Source: Candidatus Aminicenantes bacterium
Lineage (GTDB): Bacteria > Acidobacteriota > Aminicenantia > Aminicenantales > UBA8522
Direction of reading: 5' to 3'
Length of the DNA: 64,000 nucleotides
NCBI GenBank assembly: GCA_037444845.1
Contig: JBBILQ010000004.1
Span: 12,745 to 76,744, forward strand
Numbering within the stretch: position 1 is the stretch's first letter; every line of letters begins with the position of its first letter. Positions 18,430-39,087 of this stretch are shown here, one piece after another. Below the pieces are notes generated by a model. That model made no database searches. It saw only the letters and a program-made list of their open reading frames with translations, and had not been told where the DNA came from. A program made the position numbers and the translations under genes.

Positions 18430-19390
18430 GGTTGCCTTTTACTGGTCCTCCTCGTGCGGCGGCTGCGAGGAATCCATCGTTGACCTGGCAGAAGACATCC
18501 TCAAAGTTGTTGCTGCCGTGGACATCGTCTTCTGGCCGGTCGCTCTCGATTTTAAGAAGAAGGATGTCGAGGCCATGCCCGACGGCTCCATCGCCGTGAG
18601 TTTCATCAACGGCGCCGTCAGGCTCTCCGAGCAGGAGGAAATGGTCAAGCTCCTGCGCCGGAAATCCCAGCTCGTCGTCGCCCACGGATCCTGCTCCCAT
18701 CTTGGAGGAATCCCCGGGCTGGGGAACTTCTGGAATAGAGAGACGATCTTCCGGCGCGCCTATCACACGACGCCTTCCACGCAAAACCCTGAGAAAATCG
18801 TCCCGCAGGAAAAGACCATCCTTGAAGGAAAAGAGCTCACCCTGCCCGTGTTTTACGACACGGTTTACGCTCTCAACCAGGTCATCGATGTCGACTATTA
18901 CCTGCCCGGGTGCGCGCCGCCTCGGGATCTCATCCTCAGCGCCGTCAGCGCCATTTTAGAGGGAAAGCTTCCGGCGAAAGGAGCCGTCCTCTCGCCCAAC
19001 ACGTCTCTCTGTGACGACTGCGATAGGAACAAAACCAAGCCCGAAAAATTGACCATCAAGGAGATCAAGCGTCCCTGGGAAATCATGTTAGACCCAGAAA
19101 AATGCTTCCTTGCCCAGGGAGTCATCTGCATGGGACCGGCCACCCGGACAGGCTGCAACGAGCGCTGCATCGAGGCGAACATGCCTTGCCGGGGCTGTTT
19201 CGGCCCCACCGACCAGGTCTACGACCAGGGCGCCAAGTTTCTCTCAGCCCTGGCTTCGATCTTAGACACGAACGACGAAAAGGAAATCGACAGGATCGTC
19301 CAATCCATATCCGACCCTGCAGGAACCTTTTACCGGTTCAGTCTGCCCACGTCCATCCTGCAGCGAAGACGCATGGAGGCCATAAAATGA
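18407..19390 (+). CDS. mvhG: NiFe hydrogenase small subunit, MvhG-type (group 3c)
   Basis: Start chosen at MSNAKPKVAFYWSSSCGGCEES (RBS GGAGG 5 nt upstream); proximal cluster Cys motifs; overlaps mvhD by 23 nt. Confidence 0.85.
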   Translation, partial: NMSNAKPKVAFYWSSSCGGCEESIVDLAEDILKVVAAVDIVFWPVALDFKKKDVEAMPDGSIAVSFINGAVRLSEQEEMVKLLRRKSQLVVAHGSCSHLGGIPGLGNFWNRETIFRRAYHTTPSTQNPEKIVPQEKTILEGKELTLPVFYDTVYALNQVIDVDYYLPGCAPPRDLILSAVSAILEGKLPAKGAVLSPNTSLCDDCDRNKTKPEKLTIKEIKRPWEIMLDPEKCFLAQGVICMGPATRTGCNERCIEANMPCRGCFGPTDQVYDQGAKFLSALASILDTNDEKEIDRIVQSISDPAGTFYRFSLPTSILQRRRMEAIK

Positions 19391-20910: not shown

Positions 20911-21165
20911 AATAGGCGGATGTTTCTCCTGTCAAGGCGAGCACCCATTGCGTGCGTGGCATCCCATGATAACTAACCTGGACTATTCACGAAATGAAAG
21001 GAAAAAATCCCCTCTCCCCATGTGGGAGAGGGTCGGGGTGAGGGGGATCATTCAAAGATTCCCCCTCCCCCCAGGGGAGGGGCCTGCTTTCTGGCATAAT
21101 TTGTGAATAGGTCAGGCTAACTGAGATCACTTCGTTTCGCTCGCGATGACAAAGTCCTAACGGCA
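20911..21165. repeat. Repeat-C palindromic element (REP-like) split by a nested MITE-A insertion
   Basis: Left half gtcaaggcgagcacccattgcgtgcgtggcatcccatgataa, right half ctgagatcacttcgtttcgctcgcgatgac. Together they align to the uninterrupted copy at 38620..38696. Confidence 0.7.
20977..21116 (+). mobile_element. MITE-A copy 2 (140 bp; 14-bp internal deletion relative to the other copies) with CTAA target duplication
   Basis: ctaa at 20973..20976 and 21117..21120; inserted within repeat C. Confidence 0.85.
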
Positions 21166-21251
21166 ATTTTCGGGCCACTTTATTTCCTTGAGGGTCTTCG
21201 CTCTTTTAGAGTATAATGTTTTTTAAGAAAAAAATAGCCCCGTAAAGTCTG

Positions 21252-23234
21252 ATGCATCCTCTTCGCTTGTCCCTGCGAATAAAGCTCATCCTCAGTTTTT
21301 TGGTGGTCATCATCATAGGCGGGTTGATCTCCCTCACCTTCGGCCAGCGCTTGATCAAGAACGTTCTCATCTCTCAAGCCCAGGTCAAGGTCAATCACGA
21401 CCTGGCCTCTGCCTGGATCGTCTTCAACGAGAAGCTCAATGACATCGAAGACATCGTCAGCCTTACCGCTTCCCGGGAAAGCCTCCATGAGGCAATCCGG
21501 AATAACCGGAAAGACATTCTTCTCCGCTACCTGAACCGGGTCAGGAACCAGTACGGCCTGGACGTTCTGACCCTTACGGACAGACGAGGTCGGGTCATCA
21601 CGAGGACCAGGAACCCTGAGGTGGAAGGGGATGACCAGTCCGGGGATGAAATCGTCAGCTGGGCTCTTCAGCCCAATGTCCTCGCCTATCCCCAGATTAT
21701 CCCCCGGGAGGAGCTCCTTAAAGAGGGAAAAGACCTGGCCGAGAAAGCCTGCATGGAATTCATCCCTACCCCCAAGGCCGCTCCAAGGCCCGAGAATAAA
21801 GAGACAAGCGGCTTGATGCTTAAGGCAGCTGCCTCGGTCATCGATGAGAATGACGAGCCCCTCGGGGTTCTCTACGGCGGCATCCTCCTTAACCGCAACT
21901 ATGAGATCGTGGATAAGGTCAAAGAGACCGTCTTCAAAGGAGAAAAATACAAGGGGGTGGAGACGGGAACGGCGACGATCTTCCAGGGAGACCTGCGCAT
22001 CTCCACAAACGTCACCGATGCCCAGGGCCATCGGGCCATCGGCACGCGTATCTCCGAGGAGGTGAAGAAAGCCGTGCTCGATAAGGGCAAGTCCTGGAAC
22101 GACCGGGCGTTCGTCGTCAAGGACTGGTACATCACGGCTTACGAGCCGATCAAAAACATCAAGGACGAGATCATCGGCATCCTCTATGTGGGAACGCTGG
22201 AAAAGCCGTACATCGATATCGCCAATCGAGTCATGTTGACTTTCACTATCCTGGCCTCCCTCTGCGTCATCTTTCTCTTAGTCAGCCTCTATTTCTCAAC
22301 GACAAGAATCATCAAGCCTCTTCAGCGGATGGTCAACGCTACTCAGGAGATTGCCAAAGGAGACCTCGAGCATAAGGTGGAAATCAAGTCGACCGACGAG
22401 CTGGGCTATCTTGCCTCCTCCTTCAACCAGATGACCGAAAAACTCAAGGCCGCCAACGAGGAGCTTATCGAATGGGGCAGGACGCTTGAAAAAAAAGTCC
22501 AGGAGAGGACCGGAGAACTCCTGGAGATGCAGGCCTCCCTCGTTCAGTCAGAAAAACTGGCCTCGCTGGGCAAGCTGGCCGCAGGAATCGCCCACGAAAT
22601 CAACAACCCCCTGGGAGGAATTCTCATTTATAGCCATCTCCTCCTCGAAGAGACAAAGGGAAAAAGCGGCCAGTCTGAAACCCTGAAAAAAATCATCAAA
22701 GAGACATCCCGCTGCAAGAACATCGTCAAAGGGCTGTTGGAGTTTGCCCGGCCCAAAGAGCCGGAGATGGCGCCAACCGACCTCAATGAGGTAATAAACA
22801 AGACCCTGGCGATTTTTGAGCGCCAGGCGCTTTTTCAAAACATCAAGGTCGAGAAAGATTTTTCTGGCATTCCCAGGATCGTGGCTGACGGGTCCCAGCT
22901 CCAGCAGGTCTTCGCCAACATCATCATCAACGCCGCCGAAGCCATGGACGGAAATGGCCTGCTGACGATCAAGACATATCTGGACACAAAGACCAACGTT
23001 TTAAGAATCGAGTTCCGGGACACGGGACACGGAATCCGAGAAGAGGACCTGCCCCGTCTCTTCGAGCCTTTCTTCACCACTAAAGAAGTGGGCAAGGGGA
23101 CCGGCTTGGGCCTGGCCATCAGCTACAGCATCGTCCAAAAACACAACGGGTCTATCAAGGTAAAGAGCGAGGTCGGCCAGGGCTCAACCTTTACCGTCAT
23201 TCTCCCCCTGAACAAGGAAGCGCCATATGAATAA
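21252..23234 (+). CDS. Sensor histidine kinase with periplasmic sensor domain, HAMP, HisKA and HATPase_c
   Basis: N-terminal TM segment LILSFLVVIIIGGLISL and a second TM segment; HAMP region; SEKLASLGKLAAGIAHEINNPLGG; GTGLGLAISYSIVQKHNGSIKV. Confidence 0.85.
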   Translation: MHPLRLSLRIKLILSFLVVIIIGGLISLTFGQRLIKNVLISQAQVKVNHDLASAWIVFNEKLNDIEDIVSLTASRESLHEAIRNNRKDILLRYLNRVRNQYGLDVLTLTDRRGRVITRTRNPEVEGDDQSGDEIVSWALQPNVLAYPQIIPREELLKEGKDLAEKACMEFIPTPKAAPRPENKETSGLMLKAAASVIDENDEPLGVLYGGILLNRNYEIVDKVKETVFKGEKYKGVETGTATIFQGDLRISTNVTDAQGHRAIGTRISEEVKKAVLDKGKSWNDRAFVVKDWYITAYEPIKNIKDEIIGILYVGTLEKPYIDIANRVMLTFTILASLCVIFLLVSLYFSTTRIIKPLQRMVNATQEIAKGDLEHKVEIKSTDELGYLASSFNQMTEKLKAANEELIEWGRTLEKKVQERTGELLEMQASLVQSEKLASLGKLAAGIAHEINNPLGGILIYSHLLLEETKGKSGQSETLKKIIKETSRCKNIVKGLLEFARPKEPEMAPTDLNEVINKTLAIFERQALFQNIKVEKDFSGIPRIVADGSQLQQVFANIIINAAEAMDGNGLLTIKTYLDTKTNVLRIEFRDTGHGIREEDLPRLFEPFFTTKEVGKGTGLGLAISYSIVQKHNGSIKVKSEVGQGSTFTVILPLNKEAPYE

Positions 23235-24579
23235 ACCGGCCAACATCCTGATCATCGACGACGAAGAATCCATGCGCGATTCCATGAGCCAGGTTCTCCG
23301 CAAAGAAGGCTACACGGTCAAAGGGGCGGTTGAAGGAAAAGAAGGGTTGAACCTCTTCAACCGGGAGACATTCCACGTTGTCTTCCTCGACCTTAAGTTG
23401 CCGGGGGTCAAGGGTATGCAGGTGCTCAGCTGGATCAAAGATACCAGCCCGGAAACGCCGGTCATCATCGTCACCGGCTACGCATCGATCGAATCAGCTG
23501 TTGAAGCGATGAAGCGGGGCGCATTCGACTACATGGCCAAGCCCTTTACTCCCGAAGAGCTGCGGGTCGTCACCAAGAGGGCCTTGGACGGACGGAAGCT
23601 TCTGTTTGAAAACATCTATCTTCGCGGCGAGCTCGAGGCCAAAACTGAATTCGAGATGGTCATCGGGAAGAGCAAAGCCATGCGCGATGTTCTCGACATC
23701 GTCAGGCGGGTCAGCCCCACCGAGAGCACGGTCCTCATCACCGGAGAGAGCGGCACGGGCAAGGAGCTCATCGCCCGGGAAATTCATCTTCACAGCCTGA
23801 GACGACAGGCGCCTTTCGTGGTCGTCGACTGCGGAGCCCTGGTCGAGACGCTCTTCGAGTCTGAGCTTTTCGGACACGTCAAAGGGTCGTTCACCGGAGC
23901 CCACGAGACCAAGCACGGGCGGTTCGAAGTGGCTGACGGAGGCACAATTTTCTTCGACGAGATCAGCAACATCGGGCTCAACATCCAGGTCAAGCTGCTC
24001 CGTGTTATCCAGGAGAGGGAGATTACCCGGATCGGGTCGAGCAAGCCGATCAAAGTTGACGTCCGGATCCTGGCCGCAACCAATGAAGACCTGGCCGAGG
24101 CCGTGAGAAAGGGAAAATTCAGGGAGGACCTCTTCTACAGGCTGAGCGTCGTCCCGATCCAACTGCCCGCCCTGCGCGAAAGGAAAGAAGACATACCTCT
24201 GCTGGTCGAGCATTTCTTGCGCAAGTACAACAAAAGAGCCAAGAAAAATATTGAAGGCGTTTCCCCTCGCGCCATCAAAGCGCTCGCCGAATACGACTGG
24301 CCCGGAAACATCCGCGAGCTGGAGAACACGATAGAAAGAGCCGTCGTCCTGTCCAAGACGAACGGCATCGACATGGAGGACCTGATGTATCACGGGATCA
24401 GCGCTTCAACCGGCCTGGCGGCATCTGCCGGCGGAAAATACAGAACCCTGGAAGAAATAGAGAAAGAGCACATCAAAGCCGTCCTCCAGGCTCAGTTCGG
24501 GAACAAGAGCCGGGCCGCTGAGGTGCTGGGGATTGACCGAAAAACTCTCTGGGCCAAAGTCAAGAAGTACAAAATCTAG
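23227..24579 (+). CDS. Sigma-54-dependent response regulator (NtrC family) with C-terminal HTH
   Basis: Receiver ILIIDDEESMRD...DLKLPG; GESGTGKE; ESELFGHVKGSFTGA; GKFREDLFYRL; C-terminal Fis-like HTH RAAEVLGIDRKTLWAKVKKY. Confidence 0.9.
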   Translation: MNKPANILIIDDEESMRDSMSQVLRKEGYTVKGAVEGKEGLNLFNRETFHVVFLDLKLPGVKGMQVLSWIKDTSPETPVIIVTGYASIESAVEAMKRGAFDYMAKPFTPEELRVVTKRALDGRKLLFENIYLRGELEAKTEFEMVIGKSKAMRDVLDIVRRVSPTESTVLITGESGTGKELIAREIHLHSLRRQAPFVVVDCGALVETLFESELFGHVKGSFTGAHETKHGRFEVADGGTIFFDEISNIGLNIQVKLLRVIQEREITRIGSSKPIKVDVRILAATNEDLAEAVRKGKFREDLFYRLSVVPIQLPALRERKEDIPLLVEHFLRKYNKRAKKNIEGVSPRAIKALAEYDWPGNIRELENTIERAVVLSKTNGIDMEDLMYHGISASTGLAASAGGKYRTLEEIEKEHIKAVLQAQFGNKSRAAEVLGIDRKTLWAKVKKYKI

Positions 24580-24674
24580 GTCAGCAGTATTTTTTTGTAT
24601 TTTTCGTGGACGCCGTGCCACCCATTCTCATTAGGCTGGTTTGCCTGATCAAGGCGAATCGTCCAGGATAAGGA

Positions 24675-24693
24675 TGGGGGAACGTCCCCCAGG
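24675..24693. promoter_or_regulatory. Palindrome TGGGGGAACGTCCCCCAGG, candidate upstream activator site about 135 bp before the sigma-54 promoter
   Basis: Inverted repeat read directly. A related palindrome CCTGGGGAAAAATTCCCCAGG sits about 120 bp before the second sigma-54 promoter at 29849. Confidence 0.45.
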
Positions 24694-24824
24694 AGTGAGG
24701 AAAAATGCCACTCTAAGGAGAACGAGTTTTTTAAACCAACTTCTGGGAAGGTCGGTTGCCTGATAATTTATTTTGAATCAATGTGTTAGGAAGTAATTAG
24801 CCGGCGCCAGAGCGCCTCCAATTA

Positions 24825-24839
24825 GGCACAGAATTTGCA
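24825..24839 (+). promoter_or_regulatory. Sigma-54 (-24/-12) promoter GGCAC-N5-TTGCA upstream of the sulfhydrogenase-like operon
   Basis: taGGCACagaatTTGCAt matches the TGGCAC-N5-TTGCW consensus with correct GG/GC spacing; located just downstream of the sigma-54 activator gene. Confidence 0.7.
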
Positions 24840-24971
24840 TAACCTCTTCTTCTACGGTTGCGGAGTCTGTTTTTTCATGATACAAGAACAGTGTCATCAA
24901 AATCGGGCTCTTATGTTGTTTGCCCTAACGGAGGGGCAAAAAATGTTCGAGCCGACATAAGGACGGACAAC

Positions 24972-26030
24972 ATGAGAATATCAAAACTCCAAAAGAACGG
25001 GCTTTTCCCCTTCCTTGAAGCTATTTCCAGGGAGGCAGAGCTGTGGGCGCCCGTCGCCAAGGGGGATAAGTTCGCCTTTGACCGCGTCGCCGACTTTTCG
25101 CGGATCGCCATGAATTCAACCCGCACGATCATCCCGGCTAAAAAAATCATGGTCCCTGCCAGCTTCAACATGTTTCACTTCACAGAAAAGGGGTATAGGG
25201 AGGACCTCTCTCATGTCACCAACAGAATCCTGTTCGGCGTTCATGCCTGCGACATTCATGGCCTTTTGACCTTGGACAAGATCTTTACGCAGGCCTATCC
25301 CGACCCTTATTATCTCGAACCCAGAAAAAGGACGATGATTCTCGGGCTGTCCTGCTGGCCTGACGAGCACTGCTTCTGCAAATCAACCCATACTCACATT
25401 GTCGAGGAAGGTTATGACCTTTTCTTCACGGACTTAAAGTCATATTTCCTCGTCTGGATCGGGTCCAGCCGGGGCGACGACCTCATTCGCCTCGCCCCCG
25501 ACCTTTTCGACGAGAACCTGACCGAGAAGGACGTCAAGACGTATATCAAATGGCAGGACGAAAGAGATAAGGCCTTCAAGACAGAAATCCAGTTCATCCG
25601 GATGCCTGACCTGATGGAGCTCAACTACCGGGCGCCTTTCTGGGAGGAGGCCGGAGATGCCTGTCTGGCCTGCGGCTCCTGCACCATGGTTTGCCCGACG
25701 TGCAATTGTTACAACGTCATGGATAAGCAATTTCTTGGGGGAAAACCGGGCCAGCGGGTACGGCACTGGGATTCCTGCACTCTCCCCGAGTATTCTGAGG
25801 TGGCGGGCGGAGAAAACTTCAGGGAGAAAAAGTCCCAGCGTCTCAAGCTCTGGTACACCCATAAGCTCCAGGCTTATGTCTCCAAGTACGGCAAGCCGAG
25901 CTGCGTCGGCTGCGGCCGTTGCCTGGTAACGTGCCCGGTCCAGATAAACGTCAAGACGGTGGCCGCGGCCCTGGAAGGGCAGGAGCCGGAGGCATTCTGG
26001 AAAAACCTGGCCAGGGAGGCAACAAGATGA
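24972..26030 (+). CDS. hydB: Sulfhydrogenase beta-like 4Fe-4S subunit (HydB/AsrA family)
   Basis: Start moved to MRISKLQ (RBS AAGGA; the annotated upstream ATG would overlap the promoter). CLACGSCTMVCPTCNC and CVGCGRCLVTCP motifs. Confidence 0.7.
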   Translation: MRISKLQKNGLFPFLEAISREAELWAPVAKGDKFAFDRVADFSRIAMNSTRTIIPAKKIMVPASFNMFHFTEKGYREDLSHVTNRILFGVHACDIHGLLTLDKIFTQAYPDPYYLEPRKRTMILGLSCWPDEHCFCKSTHTHIVEEGYDLFFTDLKSYFLVWIGSSRGDDLIRLAPDLFDENLTEKDVKTYIKWQDERDKAFKTEIQFIRMPDLMELNYRAPFWEEAGDACLACGSCTMVCPTCNCYNVMDKQFLGGKPGQRVRHWDSCTLPEYSEVAGGENFREKKSQRLKLWYTHKLQAYVSKYGKPSCVGCGRCLVTCPVQINVKTVAAALEGQEPEAFWKNLAREATR

Positions 26031-26887
26031 ACACTCAAGATAAGTGTCCTGCGGAAACTAATCCCTTTATGCCCGAGCCGGCCCGAATTGTCCGCGCCTA
26101 TCATCTGACCGAGGACGTCAAATTCTTCCAGGCCCGATTCGTTGACATGGAAAAGGCTCTGGCCTTCAGCTATAAGCCGGGGCAGTTTGCCATGGTCTCG
26201 ATCTTAGGGGCCGGAGAAGCTCCTTTCTCGATCTCCTCGACGCCTTCGCGGCCAGGCCTTCTTGAGTTCTGCATCCGGAGAGCCGGGACGGTCACCAACG
26301 CCCTCTTCCGGCTGAAAGAAAACTCGCTCATCGGCCTCCGCGGCCCTTACGGCAACGGTTTTCCCGTCGAGGCCATGACTGGCAAGGACATTCTTATCGT
26401 CGTCGGCGGGCTGGGCGCGGCCCCTCTCCGCTCTGTCCTTCTTTACAGCCTGGACAACCGCGACCAGCTCGGCCGGGTGACTGTTCTCTATGGCGCCAAG
26501 AGGCCGGCGGAAATGATTTTCAGGGAGGAATATTTATCCCTGAAACAGAGGAACGACCTCGAATGTCATTTAGCTGTAGACGCGGACGACACCGGGAAAT
26601 GGACAGAAAACGTCGGCGTCGTGACCACGCTCTTCCCCAGTCTAAAAAAAATAGACGCGCCCAACACCTATGCTCTCGTCTGCGGCCCGCCCGTGATGTA
26701 TAAATTCGTCATCAAGGAACTGATCAAGCTCGCCATCCCCAAGAACCAGATCCTGATGACGCTCGAACGGCGGATGAAATGCGGGGTGGGCAAGTGCGGC
26801 CACTGCGCCATCGATTACATCTACACCTGCCTCGACGGCCCTGTTTTTACCTACTGGGATGTCATCCACATGAGGGAGCTCATCTAA
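26027..26887 (+). CDS. hydG: Sulfhydrogenase gamma-like FAD/NAD(P)-binding 2Fe-2S subunit (HydG/AsrB/PyrK-like)
   Basis: Start MNTQDK overlaps the hydB stop (ATGA). FAD and NAD folds; C-terminal CGVGKCGHC 2Fe-2S motif. Confidence 0.8.
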   Translation: MNTQDKCPAETNPFMPEPARIVRAYHLTEDVKFFQARFVDMEKALAFSYKPGQFAMVSILGAGEAPFSISSTPSRPGLLEFCIRRAGTVTNALFRLKENSLIGLRGPYGNGFPVEAMTGKDILIVVGGLGAAPLRSVLLYSLDNRDQLGRVTVLYGAKRPAEMIFREEYLSLKQRNDLECHLAVDADDTGKWTENVGVVTTLFPSLKKIDAPNTYALVCGPPVMYKFVIKELIKLAIPKNQILMTLERRMKCGVGKCGHCAIDYIYTCLDGPVFTYWDVIHMRELI

Positions 26888-27107
26888 GTGCGCCCTTTCG
26901 TAAATACTGTAACACACTCAATATCTCCGGAGGGCGCACTTGGGGCGGTGTCGGAGGGGTATGCCCCTCTGACGGGGTTACAGCGGAAGAACGCGACGAG
27001 GAGGAGCGTTCTGGAGCGCCAGAGGGGCGTTAGCCCCTGTGGAAGTGCCCCGTTTCGTCCCAAAATATGGGATAGCATTTATGAAACGGGGCACTAAGGA
27101 GGAGACG

Positions 27108-27890
27108 ATGGAAAAAGAAAAGTTGAAAATCGGCATCTACGAGCTCACCGGCTGCGCCGGCGACGCTCTCCTCATTGTCGACTGCGAAGAGGAGCTTGTG
27201 AACATCTTCAAGGCCGCCGACATCGAGTCCTTCCTCATGGCCAAGAGCGATAACCGCAACGGCGAGCTCGACGTGGCTCTGGTGGAGGGCTCGGTCAGCA
27301 CGGAAAACGAAAAGGAAGAGCTCCTGGATATCAGAAAACGGTCCAAGGTTGTCGTGGCCATAGGCAACTGCGCCTGCGTCGGCGGCATCCAGGCAGCCTT
27401 CCTGGACAAGAAAGACTGGGAGAAGAACTTCAAGAAAGTTTACGGTGCCACCGCCTTCACCCACACCAAACCCGCCCAGAGCAAGCCTATCGACGCGTAC
27501 ATCCGCGTCGATCATTATCTTCCTGGCTGTCCCATCGGGAAAGAGCAGTTTCTTTCGACCTTCGCCCGGATGGTGGAAGGGAACCCGCCGGAGCTTTACC
27601 GCTTCCCCGTTTGCGTCGAATGCAAATGGCATGAAAACGACTGTCTTCTCAACAAAGACATCCCCTGTCTGGGTCCTTTGACATTGGGCGGCTGCGGGTC
27701 CGTTTGCCCGAATCATGCCATCCCCTGCTTTGGCTGCTGGGGCCCGACAGAGGAGGCCAATATGACTTCCGAATACCGCCTTCTCTTAGAAAAAGGCTTT
27801 GACCTCGAAATGATCAAAAAGAGAATGGCCACCTACTCCGGAACGAGGATTGCCGAGTTCTTCGCGCAATTCAGAAAGGAGAAAAGATGA
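27108..27890 (+). CDS. hydD: NiFe hydrogenase small subunit, group 3b (HydD-like)
   Basis: Start MEKEKLKIGIYELTGCAGD with RBS AAGGAGG; GNCACVGG and other cluster Cys motifs. Confidence 0.85.
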   Translation: MEKEKLKIGIYELTGCAGDALLIVDCEEELVNIFKAADIESFLMAKSDNRNGELDVALVEGSVSTENEKEELLDIRKRSKVVVAIGNCACVGGIQAAFLDKKDWEKNFKKVYGATAFTHTKPAQSKPIDAYIRVDHYLPGCPIGKEQFLSTFARMVEGNPPELYRFPVCVECKWHENDCLLNKDIPCLGPLTLGGCGSVCPNHAIPCFGCWGPTEEANMTSEYRLLLEKGFDLEMIKKRMATYSGTRIAEFFAQFRKEKR

Positions 27891-29623
27891 AGACGATCAG
27901 CATCGACCACCTCGCCCGCGTTGAAGGCAATGGCGGCATTTCCGCCACCATCGATGGCCGCGTCGTCACCGAAGTCAAGTTCACGGTCAACGAAGGCCCG
28001 AGACTCATCGAGCGCCTGACGGTCGGCAAGACGCCCGAAGAGGACGTCAGCATCGCTCCCCGGATATGCGCCATCTGCACTCTTTCTCATAAAAACGCCG
28101 TCCTCCGTGCCATGGAGAACGCCCTGGGTGTCAAGGTTCCGGCGAAAGTGACTCTCCTCCGGGAGCTCATGCACATGGGTGAGTTCATCGAAAGCCATTC
28201 CCTGCACGTGTTTTATCTTGCTCTCCCCGATTATGTAGGTTTTCCCAACGCCATTGCCATGGCCTCAAAATTTCCGCTTGAGGTCAAGATCGCCTTAGAG
28301 ATGAAGCAGTTCGGCAACCACATCATGAAAGTCCTGAGCGGCCGGTATATCCACGGCGAAAACCCGGTCATCGGCGGGTTCGGGAAGTACCCCGCCAGGG
28401 ATGAGCTCATCTGGATCAAAAACCGGGCGTTCCAGTTCATGCCCTTTGTTATCAGGACGGTGGACCTGTTCTGCGGCCTTGGCTATCCGGCCATTCCCGA
28501 GGAGGATACCGTCTACGCCTGTTGCGAGCCGGAAGACGGAAAATACGGTCTCTGGGGGGACGAGATCATCCTGTCCACGGGAGAAAAAATCAACAGGGAT
28601 GACTACAGGAGTTTGACAAACGAATTTTTCGTCCCGCATTCCTTTTGCAAGCGCAGCCGGTACAAAGGAAACACGTATTCTGTGGGCGCCCTCGCCCGAG
28701 TCAACGTCCTGGGCGAGAGGCTCGAGGGGGAAACAGGCAAGATGTTCAAGAAATATTTCAACGCCCGCTGGAAAAGGAACCCCCTCTTCCACAACGCTGC
28801 CCAGGCTCTGGAAATTCTTTACGCTTTTGAAAAAATCCCGGAGCTGGTGGATGAAATTCTCAAACACCCAGAGAATCCAGCTTTGGTTCCGTACAAATCC
28901 AAGAGCGGCAAAGGGACAGGCCTGGTGGAAGCTCCCCGGGGCCTCCTCGTCCATCATTATGAAATAGCAGACGGCCTTGTCGCCGACGTCGACATCATCA
29001 CTCCGACCGCTCAGAACGCCGAAGAGATCGAACGATATTGCTACATTGCAGCCCAGAAGCTCTTAGATGAGGGGAAAGAGAGCGAGATCAGAGACAGGAT
29101 GGAGCTCGTCGTCCGGGCGTTTGACCCATGCATCAGCTGTTCGGTCCATATGGCCGAGGTCAAAAAGGCCCCGGCCGAGAACTGGAAAATCAAGCTGGCC
29201 GGGCTCCTTAAAGCCAACCCTGTTTTTATCGGCGTCGGGAAAGAAGGCCGGTCGGACGACCGGGCCGGCCTTGAACTGGCCTTAGAGATGAGGAAAGCCG
29301 GCGTCAAAGACGTCTACCTGGAACAGGAACTCGAAGAGGGCCACATCCTGGAAAAGGCCTCCCGGCGGCCTCTCATTTTCCTGGACATCGCGAACATGGG
29401 AGAACAGGCGGGTAAAATTGCCGTGCTGCCTCTCCAGCACGTCTTCTGGAACTCCGTGCTAAGCCACAGACTCTTGCCCGCCCTCTCGAACAAACTGACC
29501 CACGACGAGATCAAACACGCCTACATTCTCGGCATCCAGCCCAAATCTGTGGAAGAAGGAGACGACTTGTCTCGGCCGGTCCGGCGGGCCCTAAAAAAAA
29601 TCCTGAGTGAAACGATAGATTAA
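27887..29623 (+). CDS. hydA: NiFe hydrogenase large subunit (HydA-like) fused in frame to a C-terminal maturation endopeptidase (HycI/HybD-like) domain
   Basis: RICAICT N-terminal motif; DPCISCSVH C-terminal Ni-binding motif at about aa 410. After a 24-aa linker comes VFIGVGKEGRSDDRAGLELALEM (compare the protease motif LGxGNxxxxDDGxG), then LIFLDIANMGEQAGK and THDEIKHAYILGIQPK. Confidence 0.8.
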   Translation: MKTISIDHLARVEGNGGISATIDGRVVTEVKFTVNEGPRLIERLTVGKTPEEDVSIAPRICAICTLSHKNAVLRAMENALGVKVPAKVTLLRELMHMGEFIESHSLHVFYLALPDYVGFPNAIAMASKFPLEVKIALEMKQFGNHIMKVLSGRYIHGENPVIGGFGKYPARDELIWIKNRAFQFMPFVIRTVDLFCGLGYPAIPEEDTVYACCEPEDGKYGLWGDEIILSTGEKINRDDYRSLTNEFFVPHSFCKRSRYKGNTYSVGALARVNVLGERLEGETGKMFKKYFNARWKRNPLFHNAAQALEILYAFEKIPELVDEILKHPENPALVPYKSKSGKGTGLVEAPRGLLVHHYEIADGLVADVDIITPTAQNAEEIERYCYIAAQKLLDEGKESEIRDRMELVVRAFDPCISCSVHMAEVKKAPAENWKIKLAGLLKANPVFIGVGKEGRSDDRAGLELALEMRKAGVKDVYLEQELEEGHILEKASRRPLIFLDIANMGEQAGKIAVLPLQHVFWNSVLSHRLLPALSNKLTHDEIKHAYILGIQPKSVEEGDDLSRPVRRALKKILSETID

Positions 29624-29718
29624 GTAAGAATATGATCGATCCATTTATCTCTTGTGAGCCTTCCCCTAAAGTGATAGAATCGTTCTCCTGAAAAGAAGTC
29701 GAGGAAATATTGGAACAA

Positions 29719-29739
29719 GCCTGGGGAAAAATTCCCCAG
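29719..29739. promoter_or_regulatory. Palindrome CCTGGGGAAAAATTCCCCAGG: candidate activator binding site and/or hydA terminator hairpin
   Basis: Perfect 9-bp inverted repeat with a 3-nt spacer, about 95 nt after the hydA stop and about 120 bp before the sigma-54 promoter. Confidence 0.45.
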
Positions 29740-29848
29740 GCCGCTTGGATATCGCAGGGCCCAAAAGAGAGAAGAGATGGCTGTTAGCTCTATGTTATTT
29801 AATATCAATAACATAAATATTCCACTCGGGCCACCTCCCCCGCACGTT

Positions 29849-29864
29849 TGGCACACAAATTGCT
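29849..29864 (+). promoter_or_regulatory. Sigma-54 promoter TGGCAC-N5-TTGCT upstream of the receiver gene
   Basis: tTGGCACacaaaTTGCTt is a perfect consensus match; the RBS GAGGA and ATG 29891 follow. Confidence 0.75.
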
Positions 29865-29890
29865 TTACTTCCCTCCCTGAGGAATATGCG

Positions 29891-30262
29891 ATGAGCAGCG
29901 GAGAAAAGAGAATCCTGATCGTCGACCCCGATCCTGTTCAGAGGCGGGACTTGGCCCAGTTTCTTAAGAATGAAAACTACGATCCCGAAACAGCCAGAAA
30001 CCTCTCCGAGGCCATCAAGAAAGTATCCGGGAGAGGTTTTAGCTGTCTGGTGATGGATACTCATCTTCCCGAGATGAAAGGCTATGAAGCTGTTTCCATT
30101 CTCAAGAACCTCGACCCGGGGCTCAAGATCATCATGACGACGAAGAAAAACACCAAGCGGCTTGAGGCCAAAGTCCGGGAGCAGGACATCTTCTTCTATT
30201 TTATCAAGTCCTTCGGCAAAGATGAGCTGAAGCTTGCCATAAGAAACGCTTTTAACAAGTAA
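29891..30262 (+). CDS. Single-domain response regulator (CheY-like receiver)
   Basis: Start chosen at MSSGEKRILIVDPD; phospho-acceptor Asp context CLVMDTHLPEMKG; conserved K in IIMTTKK. Confidence 0.7.
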   Translation: MSSGEKRILIVDPDPVQRRDLAQFLKNENYDPETARNLSEAIKKVSGRGFSCLVMDTHLPEMKGYEAVSILKNLDPGLKIIMTTKKNTKRLEAKVREQDIFFYFIKSFGKDELKLAIRNAFNK

Positions 30263-30275
30263 AGGAGGAAAGGCA

Positions 30276-30683
30276 ATGAACAAAAGCGCCCAGAAAATCT
30301 TGGTCATCGACGACGACCCCGATTTCTTGGCTGCGGTGACCCCAATCTTGAAATCAGCCCTTTACGAAGTTGCGACGGCCACAAACCCAAAGGAGGCCAA
30401 GGAAAAGATTTTTTCCGAAAAGCCCAACCTCATCCTGCTCGACATCATGATGGACAGCCTTTTTGACGGCTTTTCCCTCTGTCACGCCATTAAGACTTCG
30501 AAGGAATTTAGAGACTATAAAGATACACCCATCATTTTCATTTCAGCCGTAAAGGAGATCGCCGGCACCAGGTTCCAGTTCAAGGGCGATGAAGAGGGCA
30601 TGGCCGGTCCCGATGACTATATCGACAAGCCGGTCAAGCCCGACGACCTGCTGGCCCGGATCGCCAAACTCCTCAAAAAATAG
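30276..30683 (+). CDS. Single-domain response regulator (receiver) with a divergent C-terminal half
   Basis: KILVIDDDPDFL...LILLDIMMDS...IIFISA; strong RBS AAGGAGG. Confidence 0.75.
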   Translation: MNKSAQKILVIDDDPDFLAAVTPILKSALYEVATATNPKEAKEKIFSEKPNLILLDIMMDSLFDGFSLCHAIKTSKEFRDYKDTPIIFISAVKEIAGTRFQFKGDEEGMAGPDDYIDKPVKPDDLLARIAKLLKK

Positions 30684-30744
30684 AATTCCTCCGCCTCCTC
30701 CATTCCCTTCCCGCTGCCCCAGGAAAAGAAAGTAACTTCTATAA

Positions 30745-30866
30745 TGGGCGCAGGGGGCTGCTCTAAAGCCCCCGTAGCGGAGGGGGGACCCGTCGGCTTC
30801 TCCGACGGGGGGAACCGACGGGACTGGTTCCCCGGGGCGCGGGGGCCAAGAGCAGCCTCCTGCGCC
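30745..30866 (+). ncRNA. Repeat B copy 1: about 122-nt structured element (outer 19-bp stem enclosing three hairpins), candidate small RNA preceded by TATAAT
   Basis: Second copy at 52253..52376 shows compensatory changes in the stems. G-U pairs are possible only on the plus strand. TATAAT lies at 30739..30744, immediately upstream. Confidence 0.5.
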
Positions 30867-30961
30867 CTATCCAATGATATAAGTAGAAATGCTTAGCGGA
30901 GTAAAATCCGGGCTGAAATGAATCGCGATTTGCGCTAAAATAGAGCTCCAGGAGAAAAGCC

Positions 30962-32074
30962 GTGGCCGAAAAAAACCCGATTGTTCTTGTTATTGACGAC
31001 GAAGAAGCCATGCGGGATTCGTGCTCCCTCATCCTGGCCAAAGGCGGGTTCACCGCCGTGACAGCCGAAGACGGCCAGGTTGGGCTGGAAAAAATAAGGG
31101 ATCTCAAACCCGACGTCGCTCTCATCGACCTGAAGATGCCGGGCATCAGCGGGTTCGACGTCCTGGAAAAAACGAAAGAGATTGACCCCCAGCTCATTCC
31201 CATCGTCATCACGGGATATGCGACCGTGGATTCTGCCGTCGAAGCGATGAAAAAAGGCGCTTATGACTTCCTGCCCAAGCCCTTCACTCCCGAGGAGCTC
31301 CGGATTATCATCAGCCGGGCGCTGGAAAGGCGCCGGCTGGCTATGGAGGCCGAGACACTGCGGCGCGAAAAGAAGCTCATGGAGGATAATTTCATCACCA
31401 TGGTCACCCACCAGCTCCGCAGCCCGCTGGTGGCCATCCAGCAGTATTTCGAGGTCATCCTGGCTGGACTGGCCGGCCAGGTCGATAAAACCCAGCAGGA
31501 GATGATCCTGAGAGCCCGGGAGCGGCTGGACAGCCTGCTCCGGCTGATCAACGACTGGCTGGACCTGGCCAGAATCGACCGGGGCCAGATCGTGGGCAAG
31601 CTCAAACCCGTGGCTCTCGACAACCTGCTCAAGAAGCAGGTTGAATTTTTAGAGTCGCTGGCGAAGGAGTATGAGGTGAGCCTGGAACTCGAGCCGGCCA
31701 AAGGGCCAGCCGCTGTGCTGGGCGATGAGCAGATGCTGGACCAGGTCTTCTCCAATATCATCACCAATGCCATCAAGTACAACAAGCCGAAAGGCTCAGT
31801 GACCATCTCGATGGGTCATGAGGACAGCTTCGTCGTCGTCAAGGTAAAGGACACGGGGATCGGGATTGCCAGGGAACACCTTCCGTTCATCTTCGACCAA
31901 TTCTACCGTGTCAGCCGCAGGGAGGACCAGAAAATCAAGGGGACTGGCCTGGGGCTTTCAATCGCCAAAAAAATCGTCGAAGCCCACAACGGCTCGATAG
32001 ACGCGGAGAGCGAGCCGGGTCAAGGCTCCACGTTCAGCGTCAGGCTTCCCCGGCCGGAAGATGAAACAAAATGA
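30962..32074 (+). CDS. Hybrid response regulator-histidine kinase (N-terminal receiver, HisKA, HATPase_c)
   Basis: IVLVIDDEEAMRD...IDLKMPGISG; HQLRSPLVAIQQY; DTGIGIAREHLPFIFDQFYRV...GLGLSIAKKIVEAHNGSI. Confidence 0.85.
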   Translation: MAEKNPIVLVIDDEEAMRDSCSLILAKGGFTAVTAEDGQVGLEKIRDLKPDVALIDLKMPGISGFDVLEKTKEIDPQLIPIVITGYATVDSAVEAMKKGAYDFLPKPFTPEELRIIISRALERRRLAMEAETLRREKKLMEDNFITMVTHQLRSPLVAIQQYFEVILAGLAGQVDKTQQEMILRARERLDSLLRLINDWLDLARIDRGQIVGKLKPVALDNLLKKQVEFLESLAKEYEVSLELEPAKGPAAVLGDEQMLDQVFSNIITNAIKYNKPKGSVTISMGHEDSFVVVKVKDTGIGIAREHLPFIFDQFYRVSRREDQKIKGTGLGLSIAKKIVEAHNGSIDAESEPGQGSTFSVRLPRPEDETK

Positions 32075-32550
32075 AGACTCTTGTTTTAGGCCTGGGAAAC
32101 GAGCTCTACGGAGACGACGGAATCGGCGTCCAGGTCATTCGCCATCTCAGGGAGGAAATGACAAAAATGCCGACCGGGGATTTCCAGGATGTCGACCTGG
32201 AAGAATGCTCCCTGTCCGGCCTCGCCCTTTTAGATGTTATCGTCGGCTACGACCGGCTCATCCTCATCGACACCATCAAGCGGGAGGCCCCCCAAACGGG
32301 AAGAATCCAGGTTTTGGGAGAGGCCGATATCCGGGCCGTTCCCGGCCCCTCTCCCCATTACGCCTCGGTGCCGCAGGCGATCGAAATCGGGCGAAGCCTC
32401 GGCCTCCACATGCCCTCCCGCATCCAGGTCGTGGCCGTCGAGGCAAAGAACCTTCATTCTTTAGGAGAAAAGCTATCGGAGGAAATGGAAAAAAACATGC
32501 CGGCCATTGCCGAGAAGGTCAAAAAAATCTTGAGAAAAACAGAGGATTAG
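32071..32550 (+). CDS. hycI: Hydrogenase maturation endopeptidase (HycI/HoxW/HybD family)
   Basis: LVLGLGNELYGDDGIGV signature; start overlaps the upstream stop (ATGA). Confidence 0.85.
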   Translation: MKTLVLGLGNELYGDDGIGVQVIRHLREEMTKMPTGDFQDVDLEECSLSGLALLDVIVGYDRLILIDTIKREAPQTGRIQVLGEADIRAVPGPSPHYASVPQAIEIGRSLGLHMPSRIQVVAVEAKNLHSLGEKLSEEMEKNMPAIAEKVKKILRKTED

Positions 32551-32553
32551 GAA

Positions 32554-33225
32554 GTGGACAGAAAAGAGGTTCTTGTCCGCGAGGAGATCTTAGCCTCAAA
32601 CAAGAAAATAGCCGCTGAAATCCGCGCCCGGCTGGAAAAAGAAGGCATCCTGACCGTCAATCTCCTCAGCTCGCCGGGAGCAGGCAAGACCTCGCTCTTG
32701 GAGAGAATCGCTGAAGCTTTCAAACTGAATCACCGCATGGCTGTCATCGAGGGCGATATCGAAACTGACCTGGACGCCGAGCGGATCCGGAAGAAGGGTG
32801 TGACGGCCTGGCAGATCACCACCGGCGGCGCCTGCCATCTCGAGGCCAGGATGGTCGCCAGGCTCATTCCCGAAATTCCCTCCGAGACCAAGTTTTTGTT
32901 CATCGAAAACGTCGGCAACCTTGTCTGTCCGGCCAGCTACGACCTGGGAGAAAGCCTGCGCTGCGTCCTCCTCTCACTGCCCGAGGGCGACGACAAACCA
33001 AAGAAATATCCCAAGGCTTTTGCCACGGCCGACTGCCTCATTTTCACCAAGGCCGACCTGATGCCCGTCGTTCCCTTCGACCTGAGGCGGGCGGAAAAGG
33101 AAGCCCTGGAGATCAACCCGAAGCTCCGCGTTTTCCTGACCTCTGCCCTCAGGGGCGCGGGCATTGCCGAGCTTGTCCGCTTCTTTATTGAGCGCCGCGT
33201 CAACATGATCCAGCGTCATGCATGA
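32554..33225 (+). CDS. hypB: Hydrogenase nickel-incorporation GTPase HypB
   Basis: P-loop SSPGAGKTSLL; ENVGNLVCP; SYD...; probable GTG start. Confidence 0.85.
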   Translation: MDRKEVLVREEILASNKKIAAEIRARLEKEGILTVNLLSSPGAGKTSLLERIAEAFKLNHRMAVIEGDIETDLDAERIRKKGVTAWQITTGGACHLEARMVARLIPEIPSETKFLFIENVGNLVCPASYDLGESLRCVLLSLPEGDDKPKKYPKAFATADCLIFTKADLMPVVPFDLRRAEKEALEINPKLRVFLTSALRGAGIAELVRFFIERRVNMIQRHA

Positions 33226-33562
33226 ACTTTCCATCATCGCCAGCCTGTTTGAAATCCTGGAAGAAAAAGCCCAGGAGCAGAAAGCGAACAAAATCGTCCT
33301 CGTCAAGTTAAAGGTCGGAAAACTGGCGGGCGCCGTCCCCGAGTTCCTCGAAACCGCCTTCAATATTTACAAGGACGGAACAATCGCCAGAGAAGCGATC
33401 CTGGAAATCGAGGAAGTCCCCCTCAGGATTCGCTGCCGCACGTGTCAGGCCATTGCCGAAAGGGATGACTTTGTCTTCGTCTGCCCGGCCTGCGGTTCGA
33501 CCGTCCTCGAAACTCTCGAAGGGACCGAGCTTCTCCTCGAAAAAATCGCCCTGGAAATCTAA
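33218..33562 (+). CDS. hypA: Hydrogenase nickel-insertion protein HypA
   Basis: MHELSIIASL N-terminus; zinc-finger CRTCQ...CPACGS. Confidence 0.85.
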   Translation: MHELSIIASLFEILEEKAQEQKANKIVLVKLKVGKLAGAVPEFLETAFNIYKDGTIAREAILEIEEVPLRIRCRTCQAIAERDDFVFVCPACGSTVLETLEGTELLLEKIALEI

Positions 33563-37839: not shown

Positions 37840-38505
37840 TCAGGACGCCTTAATCATGCCTGGGGCAACCGCTCTTTTGGGAACCACCGGGTAGGTCCCC
37901 TCGGGGACAATCATTTCCATGACCTCGGCCTCAGTTAGGATGGCCGAAAGCTCTTTCCTCTTTTTTATTCTCGCGGGAAACGGAGCGATTCTTCCTTTCC
38001 TGAACAACCGGTACGCAAGGGGGAGAAGAGAAAACAGTTTCAGGGGATTTGTCCTCAGGTAGTAAAGAAGAAGCAGCCCGGCCTCGTAACTTCGGCCGTA
38101 GCGGTTGATCAGAAAGACAAAGGATTTGGAGAGAACGAAGATAGGAAATCTTTTGGGAAAAAGCTCCTTTTCCATGGCCATTCTTTTGAGAGCATAAAGA
38201 ATATCCGTGACTTTAATGCCCACGGGGCATCGGACTGTGCAGGCGTAGCAGGAAGCGCATATCCAGATGGTGCGGCTGTTGAGGACGGATTCCATAGCTC
38301 CGGCCCGAAAAAGGGCGATGATTTCACGCGGCATGATGTCCATCGTGTAGCTCACTGGACAGGACCCCGTGCATGTTCCGCACTGAATGCATTTTTTGAT
38401 TTTTTCTCCCCCGGGTATGTTGGAGACCTGGTAGAGGAAAGCGGCTCGAAGTTCGCTCTCTTTTTTATCCAGGATTCCCGGCTCTTTTAAAACATCGACG
38501 GCCAT
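37840..38505 (-). CDS. hdrC: HdrC-like 4Fe-4S subunit
   Basis: CIQCGTCTGSCPV and CASCYACTVRCP. Confidence 0.8.
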   Translation of the reverse strand: MAVDVLKEPGILDKKESELRAAFLYQVSNIPGGEKIKKCIQCGTCTGSCPVSYTMDIMPREIIALFRAGAMESVLNSRTIWICASCYACTVRCPVGIKVTDILYALKRMAMEKELFPKRFPIFVLSKSFVFLINRYGRSYEAGLLLLYYLRTNPLKLFSLLPLAYRLFRKGRIAPFPARIKKRKELSAILTEAEVMEMIVPEGTYPVVPKRAVAPGMIKAS

Positions 38506-38619
38506 CGTGTTGACCTCCTCAGATTTGTCTTAGCATAACTTTATATTGTCCGACGAAATGATGATCTGATCAAGGCGCATTTCACAGTCCAGAATTGCCG
38601 TTAGGAAAACGTTATCCCT

Positions 38620-38696
38620 GTCATCGCGAGCACCCCTTGGGTGCGTGGCGATCTCATCAACACAAACTGAGATTGCTTCGCTTCGCTCGCAAAGAC
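38620..38696. repeat. Repeat-C palindromic element (uninterrupted copy) in the hdrC/gdh divergent intergenic region
   Basis: gtcatcgcgagcaccccttgggtgcgtggcgatctcatcaacacaaactgagattgcttcgcttcgctcgcaaagac; the terminal arms gtcatcgcgagc and gctcgcaaagac are inverted repeats. Confidence 0.6.
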
Positions 38697-39087
38697 AATT
38701 TTCTATCGGCAATTTCTGGTCACGGCCTCGGCGTTAGCCAGAAGAGATTGCAATTTTGATACCAACTTCAGGGATAAAAACAGGCTCTCCTGGATCCCTA
38801 TAACCTGTTGATATCAAACAAATAGCTGGATCAGGTCATTCTCGGCGTCAGACCCTTAGGGTTCCGCTGAGGATTTTTTCCCCACTTTTGGGAATTTTTC
38901 CCAAACTCACCCCTACTTCCATCGCCCATGCGAAAATTGTCAATCGTGAGATCGCCGCGGCATCTTCAATCCCTCCTCATGACGGGGATCGCGCTGTCCC
39001 ACCGGCAACTTTGGGCCCCGGTCGCGAACAGGCACCCTTCGGTCTTATGATATAATAAACGCTAACTGTATATGGGAGAAAGTCACG

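Follow-up and report, generated by a model that had tools for sequence, protein, structure and literature searches.

Organization of the locus

The window analysed here is the whole 64,000-nucleotide (nt) stretch of contig JBBILQ010000004.1 from a Candidatus Aminicenantes bacterium. The elements in question lie in the 267-nt spacer between the [NiFe] hydrogenase gene hydA and the gene of a receiver (REC) protein. They are a predicted sigma-54 promoter, named P2, and a palindrome upstream of it, the predicted upstream activator site (UAS) UAS2. The hydrogenase genes hydB, hydG, hydD and hydA are preceded by a predicted sigma-54 promoter of their own, P1, and, further upstream, by the genes of a Cache-HAMP histidine kinase and of an NtrC-type enhancer-binding protein. 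The receiver gene is the first of the P2 operon, in which a second receiver gene, a hybrid kinase gene, the protease gene hycI and the maturation genes hypB and hypA follow. A third predicted sigma-54 promoter, P3, is located on the minus strand before a set of hdrCBA-like genes that are convergent with the P2 operon. Aminicenantes, which have not been cultured, abound in sediments and in the subsurface and presumably live by fermentation (PMC6472368, PMC7509429).

Table 1. Promoters, binding-site candidates and genes in the window. Centres are given relative to the -24 element of the respective promoter; IHF, integration host factor; aa, amino acids.
Feature	Position	Strand	Sequence or basis
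P2, sigma-54 promoter (predicted)	29849-29864	+	TGGCACacaaaTTGCT; TGGCAC (-24 element) N5 TTGCT (-12 element)
UAS2, main upstream activator site of P2 (predicted)	29719-29741		Perfect inverted repeat GCCTGGGGAA-AAA-TTCCCCAGGC
Upstream box, probable weaker second activator site	29701-29717	+	GAGGAAATATTGGAACA; conserved island in alignment A1
IHF-like site of P2	29803-29815	+	TATCAATAACATA, one mismatch to WATCAANNNNTTR; A/T-rich tract just upstream; centre -40
P1, sigma-54 promoter (predicted)	24824-24839	+	AGGCACagaatTTGCA, AGGCAC-N5-TTGCA; before hydB (ATG 24972), hydG, hydD, hydA (to 29623)
UAS1, main activator site of P1 (predicted)	24696-24712	+	TGAGGAAAAATGCCACT; centre 120 bp before AGGCAC
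Second palindrome before P1	24675-24691		TGGGGGAACGTCCCCCA; centre -141, 21 bp upstream of UAS1
IHF-like site of P1	24776-24788	+	AATCAATGTGTTA, exact WATCAANNNNTTR; centre 42 bp before promoter
P3, sigma-54 promoter (predicted)	38764-38749	-	TGGTATcaaaaTTGCA; before hdrC-like, hdrB-like and HdrA/GltD-like genes
Proximal tandem activator site of P3 (predicted)	38884-38868	-	TGGGGAAAAAATCCTCA; centre -112; 21.7 bits
Distal tandem activator site of P3 (predicted)	38905-38887	-	TTTGGGAAAAATTCCCAAA; centre -132; 15.9 bits
IHF-like site of P3	38813-38801	-	TATCAACAGGTTA, exact consensus; centre 43 bp before promoter
Mvh/Vhu-like [NiFe] hydrogenase, group 3c type	17983-20847	+	Pfam/NCBIfam scans
Cache-HAMP histidine kinase	21252-23234	+	Domain matches
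NtrC-type enhancer-binding protein	23227-24579	+	REC, AAA+ sigma-54 interaction domain, Fis-type helix-turn-helix (HTH)
hydB, hydG, hydD, hydA	24972-29623	+	Sulfhydrogenase / group-3b-type [NiFe] hydrogenase
P2 operon	29891-33562	+	Pfam matches; gene order conserved across related loci
Receiver, 123 aa	29891-30262	+	Pfam/NCBIfam scans
Second receiver	30276-30683	+	Pfam/NCBIfam scans
Receiver-HisKA-HATPase hybrid kinase	30962-32074	+	Pfam/NCBIfam scans
hycI protease	32071-32550	+	Pfam/NCBIfam scans
hypB	32554-33225	+	Pfam/NCBIfam scans
hypA	33218-33562	+	Pfam/NCBIfam scans
hdrC-like	38505-37840	-	Pfam/NCBIfam scans
hdrB-like	37829-36960	-	Pfam/NCBIfam scans
HdrA/GltD-like, 1134 aa	36963-33559	-	Pfam/NCBIfam scans

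The predicted promoter P2 and its upstream elements

P2 had been described in the earlier note as a perfect sigma-54 consensus, TGGCAC-N5-TTGCT. The match is indeed exact, and it is the only match to the exact consensus TGGCACNNNNNTTGCW in the window, where 0.04 are expected from dinucleotide shuffles (4 of 100 shuffles contained one). When one or two mismatches are allowed, the sigma-54 patterns and the palindrome patterns both occur in the window at about chance frequency; the significance of P2 and its palindrome derives from the exact match, the placement before genes and the strong conservation in relatives. P2 is on the same strand as the receiver gene and outside any plausible coding sequence. 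Its 3' end is 27 nt before the receiver-gene ATG, with a GAGGAA ribosome-binding site at 29879-29884 in between. Transcription from P2 is predicted to start near 29875, which would give a leader of about 16 nt.

A CT-rich run, CTTCCCTCCCT, occupies 29865-29884, between the -12 element and GAGGAA, and is kept in the closest relatives only. According to a preprint, a gene downstream of a sigma-54 promoter is shielded against read-through translation by CT-rich motifs in the promoter (bioRxiv 10.1101/086108). Such shielding could matter at P2 because no terminator was found between hydA and P2.

UAS2 is centred at 29730, 119 bp before the T with which TGGCAC begins and about -145 from the predicted start, in keeping with the earlier placement of a palindrome about 120 bp before the promoter. 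The palindrome as first given was CCTGGGGAAAAATTCCCCAGG at 29720-29740; the perfect repeat is slightly longer, with arms of 10 nt each separated by 3 nt, and its 17-bp core is TGGGGAAAAATTCCCCA at 29722-29738. The box upstream of UAS2 is centred about 21 bp, or two helical turns, further upstream, at about -141. Its left half resembles the half-site TGGGGAA, which is the only half-site matched, and the box is probably a weaker second activator site, to judge from its sequence. Two sites on one face of the helix would favour oligomerisation of an activator. The spacing is 20 bp between the two clear sites of P3 and 21 bp between the two of P1; the conserved second element of P2 matches the left half-site only.

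Between the activator sites and the promoter, a site resembling the IHF consensus WATCAANNNNTTR is found at P1, P2 and P3, its centre being fixed at 40-43 bp before the T of the -24 element. Among the relatives described below, WATCAANNNNTTR is matched exactly in 7 of 26 P2 spacers and with at most one mismatch in 19 of 26. The corresponding numbers for the P1 spacers are 8 of 20 (nearly all at -41 to -43) and 14 of 20. These frequencies are far higher than those in shuffles of the same segments, 0.5% for exact matches and 8% with at most one mismatch.

Conservation of the spacer in related genomes

A search with HydA as the query, with one genome kept per species, retrieved 28 syntenic loci in which HydA is 62-90% identical; most of them are labelled Candidatus Aminicenantes or Acidobacteriota. 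The gene order kinase, activator, hydBGDA, REC, REC, hybrid kinase, (hycI), hypB, hypA is common to the loci as far as the contigs reach, and 27 of the 28 have a usable spacer between hydA and the first receiver gene (REC1). Twenty-four of the hydA-REC1 spacers were aligned (alignment A1), as were the spacers between the activator gene and hydB (alignment A2). What the computation shows directly is the elements themselves, the degree to which they are conserved, their constant spacing and the fact that they occur together.

Only four islands are conserved in A1: GCGAGGAAATnnTGGAACA, TGGGGAAAAATTCCTCA, TTATTTAnTATCAATAAnTTA and TTGGCACAnnAATTGCT. They correspond to the upstream box, the palindrome, the IHF-like site and the -24/-12 element, and have column identities of 0.73, 0.87, 0.74 and 0.89, respectively, as compared with 0.28-0.47 between and around them (0.40-0.47 in the spacers that flank the -24/-12 element). 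The -24/-12 element of P2 is present with at most one mismatch in 25 of the 27 orthologous spacers, 40-48 nt before the start codon. This phylogenetic footprint strongly supports the proposal that the REC-REC-hybrid kinase-hycI-hypBA operon has its own sigma-54 promoter.

The palindrome, as TGGGGAAAAATTCCYCA, is found 117-122 bp before P2 in 24 loci (standard deviation 1.4), whereas anything between 74 and 413 nt (standard deviation 71) separates it from the hydA stop codon. The fixed distance in the one direction and the variable distance in the other tie the palindrome to the promoter and not to the end of hydA.

Predicted activator sites of P1 and P3

For a 17-bp weight matrix, 36 sites were taken from other genomes; neither the window nor its two closest relatives contributed to it. 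The four top-scoring distinct sites in the window are at 29722 (27.9 bits, the core of UAS2), 38868 on the minus strand (21.7), 24696 (20.6, UAS1) and 38888 on the minus strand (15.9), and all four lie within the P1, P2 and P3 promoter regions. Three sites in the window reach 20 bits, with 0.03 expected from Markov shuffles; none of 200 shuffles reached three.

At P1, (A/C)GGCAY-N5-TTGCA is kept in 19 of the 20 activator-hydB spacers scanned. In 19 of these 20 spacers, the site equivalent to UAS1 is found between -113 and -125 relative to the hydB promoter, and it forms a conserved island in A2. Together with the motif at -117 to -122 in 24 hydA-REC1 spacers, it supports the earlier suggestion that the structural and maturation promoters of the hydrogenase share one activator site. 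The suggestion held for the motif, which is common to both promoters, and failed for the particular palindrome that had been quoted as the counterpart before hydB, the one at 24675-24691. On sequence grounds, the true counterpart of the 29722-29738 site is UAS1, the conserved equivalent.

The pattern derived in the earlier note, TGGGGRA-N3-TYCCCCAGG, matches the window in only two places, at UAS2 and at 24675-24693, where TGGGGGAACGTCCCCCAGG fits it with no mismatch. The 24675-24691 palindrome is kept only in the two closest relatives, L001 and L002, and scores below 8 bits in the cross-genome matrix. The outer TGGGG/CCCCA pentamers of this palindrome show no deviation, for which reason it may act as a second activator site particular to this lineage. 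At its position, other relatives have GGGRACGTYCCC and a T run directly after the stop codon of the activator gene, which looks like a terminator of the activator operon.

P3 had no place in the earlier note. It came to light through an approximate motif match at 38868-38884, in the minus-strand region 38480-39120, where this promoter and two tandem activator sites are predicted. The tandem sites are 20 bp apart, centre to centre, and rank second and fourth in the window. The intergenic region is divergent: gdh starts at 39088 on the other strand, and no gene ends there. A promoter of the P3 type together with the motif is also found in L001 and in metagenomic hdrC loci. When metagenomes were scanned with HdrC, 80 loci were obtained, and 440 kb of hdrC loci were examined. 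These contain 38 motif matches that score 14 bits or more, and 29 of them are followed, 95-160 bp downstream, by a sigma-54-like element ahead of hdrC; the paired loci include some with no more than 64-70% HdrC identity. For the 28 genome loci (460 kb), 45 of 49 motif matches of at least 14 bits have a sigma-54-like element 100-150 bp downstream, a count that is partly circular as the matrix was trained on those loci; the metagenomic hdrC set is independent. The palindrome is thus enriched near other sigma-54 promoters, the lack of which had been named beforehand as an outcome that would speak against a shared activator.

In many of the metagenomic loci (L035, L041-L045 and L050-L067) the motif and the sigma-54 promoter are about 860-1000 bp upstream of hdrC and not about 130-240 bp. 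The distance of about 860 bp points to an extra first gene in those operons, which the lineage of the window lacks.

The leader between P3 and hdrC, about 244 nt here and about 130 nt in L001, contains an inverted pair of a short repeat, CTCGCGATGACA-N4-13-CCTAACGGCAATT. Three copies are present, at 21140-21168 (plus strand), 38686-38714 (plus) and 38593-38630 (minus), the first of them about 85 nt before the kinase-activator operon. No related locus was found to carry this repeat, which looks, from its sequence and distribution, like a genome-specific miniature repeat or insertion.

The candidate activator

The enhancer-binding protein encoded at 23227-24579 has a GSFTGA loop at residue 220 and a Walker A motif. 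The solved structures closest to it are those of Aquifex NtrC4 and NtrC1 and of ZraR (PDB 4l4u, 1ny5, 1ojl). Its scores against the NCBIfam models (in bits, with the cut-off) are 474.9/714 for AtoC, 437.9/760 for ZraR, 432.4/558.6 for NtrC and 305/830 for FhlA. All are below the equivalog cut-offs, and the protein is therefore not an orthologue of any named activator.

Both the kinase gene and the activator gene were detected in 21 related loci, and in 19 of these the pair adjoins hydB on its upstream side. Among the conserved cluster genes scanned, no DNA-binding protein other than the activator was found. In locus L019, from a more distant relative, the two genes are about 4 kb apart and their order is reversed, with the activator gene before the kinase gene. 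Here the motif TGGGGAGAAATTCCCCA and a sigma-54 promoter, AGGCACacaaaTTGCA, are situated between them, at 957-1131, before the kinase gene, which suggests that the activator controls its own kinase in this locus. Based on the adjacency, on the absence of another conserved DNA-binding protein among the genes scanned and on the motif at the rearranged regulator genes of L019, this response regulator is most likely the protein that binds the motif.

Proposed mechanism

A UAS, an IHF bend and a -24/-12 element make up the textbook layout of an activator-dependent sigma-54 promoter, as in the NtrC, NifA and FhlA systems. This arrangement of three parts, with motif and distances unchanged, precedes hydBGDA, the P2 operon and the hdrCBA-like operon, which argues that the three operons form one regulon. 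P2 is very probably a genuine sigma-54 promoter with the palindrome as its enhancer, and the operons of P1, P2 and P3 would belong to one regulon under the adjacent activator.

We infer the following mechanism, including the identity of the binding protein, the part played by IHF, the start of transcription, the signal and the feedback. The Cache-HAMP kinase would phosphorylate the adjacent activator upon an extracytoplasmic signal. A dimer of this NtrC-family protein would bind TGGGGAA-N3-TTCCCCA in the UAS, about 145 bp before the predicted start, with a second, weaker contact two helical turns further upstream. An IHF-type protein would bend the DNA at WATCAANNNNTTR, about 40 bp before the -24 element (about -67 from the predicted start), so that the oligomerised AAA+ activator could contact the closed complex of the sigma-54 holoenzyme and open it with ATP. 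P2 would in this way give the genes for the two receivers, the hybrid kinase, HycI, HypB and HypA their own activator-dependent start about 250 bp after hydA. Two receivers and a hybrid kinase that has no sensor domain would be expressed from P2, and these products therefore probably feed back on the phosphorelay of the regulon itself.

On a broader reading, the kinase and the activator would act as the master switch for hydrogen metabolism and electron bifurcation in the cytoplasm throughout the class Aminicenantia. Through one motif they would govern the protease-fused group-3b hydrogenase, the nickel-insertion and protease genes, the HdrCBA-like complex and the feedback module. We give this reading an even chance. 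If true, it would amount to an externally cued switch of fermentation and H2 with built-in feedback.

Several observations weigh against the single-activator regulon and its internal promoter. In locus L022 the hydA-REC1 spacer is only about 60 nt long and the architecture of P2 is gone, and in L021 the element is degenerate, without a good match to P2; the internal promoter is therefore not universal. A terminator scan found no terminator between hydA and P2, and read-through from P1 is thus possible and may also express the downstream genes alongside P2. An RpoN box was not found in the window or in the retrieved related loci, to which the search was confined. Covariation between the HTH and the GGGG/GTGG variants of the motif gave no information, the recognition helix DRKTLWAKIKKY being nearly invariant; the link from activator to motif is proposed from conserved gene adjacency only. 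A paralogue of the activator, 48% identical over residues 1-383 and truncated by the left edge of the window (2-1150, minus strand), is a possible alternative binder.

Alternative explanations

The paralogue and the uninformative covariation are the starting point for a different assignment, in which promoter and site are real and the palindrome is bound by another protein, either another enhancer-binding protein or a repressor or co-regulator that modulates sigma-54 promoters. Genomes of this kind usually carry several NtrC-type activators, which adds to its appeal. It has to contend, however, with the kinase-activator pair adjoining hydB in nearly all the related loci where both were detected, with the lack of another conserved DNA-binding protein among the cluster genes scanned and with the motif that follows the rearranged regulator genes in L019. 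Moreover, a fixed distance of about 120 bp with an IHF-like site in between is the classic layout of an enhancer and not of an operator overlapping the promoter. We regard a different binding protein as unlikely. That P2 and the palindrome are functionless chance matches to short consensus patterns would agree with the chance-level counts obtained when mismatches are allowed. It is effectively refuted by the comparative data, namely by the rarity of the exact match, by the retention of the elements and their spacing down to 62% HydA identity and by the independent recurrence of motif-promoter pairs in metagenomic loci, and its probability is negligible.

An explanation at the RNA level takes the palindrome as an intrinsic terminator or stabilising hairpin at the 3' end of the hydA transcript, and its likeness to the site before hydB as that of terminator-like hairpins after two genes. 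Some 100 nt past the hydA stop codon, the transcript would form a strong G+C-rich stem of 10 bp with a 3-nt loop (minimum free energy of the local fold -23.1 kcal/mol); several relatives have the terminator-like GGGRACGTYCCC and T run after the activator stop codon, and the terminator scan found no other terminator after hydA. Nevertheless, a U tract is absent after the palindrome (CCGCUUGGAUAUCG; CCGCTTGGATATCG directly 3' of the hairpin), no T run is conserved there in the relatives, and the scan makes no call at the palindrome itself. The local fold is barely better than that of shuffles (z = -1.7), and changes that break the pairing, such as CGTGGAA...TTCCCCA and TGGGGAA...TTCCACA, are tolerated in relatives. 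The palindrome keeps its distance to the promoter and not to the hydA stop, and the motif occurs twice upstream of P3, where no gene ends. An Rfam scan of 24300-30200 gave only a sub-threshold match to a plant microRNA (22.9 bits, with a gathering score of 72), so no known RNA element explains the palindrome. The suggestion in the earlier note that it could serve as the hydA terminator is thus not borne out, and a role as an RNA element in place of an activator site is very improbable, though a minor stabilising or roadblock role of the hairpin is possible.

Relation to known regulatory systems

In Escherichia coli, the sigma-54 activator FhlA serves the separate promoters of structural and maturation genes (hyc, hyp, fdhF and hydN-hypF, with hyp and hycI on the maturation side) through a shared UAS about 100 bp or more upstream and with IHF-assisted looping. 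The FhlA regulon, with structural and maturation genes under one sigma-54 activator, is the closest functional analogue of the regulon proposed here. FhlA, however, is a formate-sensing protein with GAF domains, and the candidate described here is a response regulator of the phosphorylated type. The FhlA-controlled hydrogenase is a membrane-associated enzyme of group 4, whereas the one encoded here is cytoplasmic and of group 3b; the binding motif and the phylum also differ.

The HoxA/HoxJ/HoxBC system of Cupriavidus necator and the HupR/HupT/HupUV system of Rhodobacter capsulatus have an NtrC-family regulator beside the hydrogenase genes that controls structural and accessory operons, in C. 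necator via sigma-54 promoters. The present locus shares with them the response regulator of the NtrC family encoded beside hydrogenase genes. Those systems sense H2 by means of a regulatory hydrogenase and a soluble PAS kinase, whereas the kinase in the window is a membrane protein with Cache and HAMP domains and the second hydrogenase is of the Mvh/Vhu-like group 3c type, not of the sensor type. HupR, in addition, acts at a sigma-70 promoter and not at a sigma-54 promoter as proposed here.

In domain architecture (REC, sigma-54 AAA+ and Fis-type HTH) the activator agrees with AtoC, ZraR, NtrC and NtrC1/NtrC4 of Aquifex aeolicus, AtoC (475 bits) and ZraR (438 bits) being the best matches. Activators of the AtoC/ZraR/NtrC type use tandem inverted-repeat sites of about 17 bp, about 100-150 bp upstream. 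The present system differs from theirs in its presumed targets, which are hydrogenase, hyp and hdr genes, and in its motif, TGGGGAA-N3-TTCCCCA.

Control of [NiFe] hydrogenase and maturation genes by sigma-54 is documented in Proteobacteria (PMC12316311), and genes for sigma-54 activators are often found next to those of hydrogenases (PMC12727194). In the anaerobe Desulfovibrio vulgaris, OrpR, IHF and sigma-54 have been described to co-regulate the divergent, redox-related orp operons via palindromic upstream sites (PMC3897727, PMC8359166). OrpR differs from the activator of this locus in having a redox-sensing sensory domain with an Fe-S cluster, and its targets, motif and phylum are also different.

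The predicted regulon extends the known control of hydrogenase and hyp genes by sigma-54 and enhancer-binding proteins, as by FhlA and HoxA, to a new phylum; the mechanism as such is not new. The present case differs in the NtrC-family member, which falls below the cut-offs of the named equivalogs, its Cache-HAMP partner, the group 3b hydrogenase, the inclusion of an Hdr-like complex in the regulon and the uncultured lineage. Literature searches returned no description of this regulon or motif in Aminicenantes. To our knowledge, nothing is known of the regulation of hydrogen metabolism in this group, which has no cultured member and no described regulon. The prediction is concrete, with a single motif, three promoters and a single candidate two-component system. 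It lends itself to predicting co-expressed genes in metatranscriptomes and to placing the Hdr-like complex and the group-3b hydrogenase in one physiological module.

Other features of the gene cluster

The subunits encoded by hydBGDA match the sulfhydrogenase models HydB/G/D/A and ShyB/C/D/A, with scores below the equivalog cut-offs. HydA (27887-29623, plus strand) is 578 residues long versus the usual 425 or so and continues past the nickel-binding motif DPCISCSVH (residues 413-421). Maturation proteases normally cut the large subunit of hydrogenases at this C-terminal motif. The extra C-terminal domain of about 155 residues itself matches hydrogenase maturation proteases (TIGR00072, E = 1e-10, residues 448-576), and the Asp/Asp/His metal ligands, inspected by eye, are apparently retained (GRSDDRAG, FLDIA, LSHR). 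The catalytic subunit thus seems, from its sequence, to be fused to its own endopeptidase. HydA is matched over its full length in most of the 28 related loci, and the separate hycI gene is present as well. Such fusions are not mentioned in a 2025 review of [NiFe] maturation.

The Mvh/Vhu-like hydrogenase is encoded directly upstream of the kinase-activator pair, an arrangement that is kept in at least 14 related loci. Neither the motif nor a sigma-54 element was found upstream of its genes in the window or in the relatives. For this reason it is apparently outside the regulon; its presumed partner, the Hdr-like complex, is inside. The 1134-residue protein of that complex has matches to HdrA/HdrA2 at both ends and, inserted between them at residues 290-800 or so, a GltD-like NAD(P)-binding domain of the type found in the small subunit of glutamate synthase. 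This domain make-up suggests an NAD(P)H-linked complex of the Hdr type that is possibly bifurcating.

Within the P2 operon, the gap between the genes of the second receiver and the hybrid kinase is 279 nt here versus about 108 nt in the closest relative, L001. It contains a G+C-rich, highly self-complementary stretch at 30700-30860, possibly a structured repeat that was inserted here or an attenuator within the operon.

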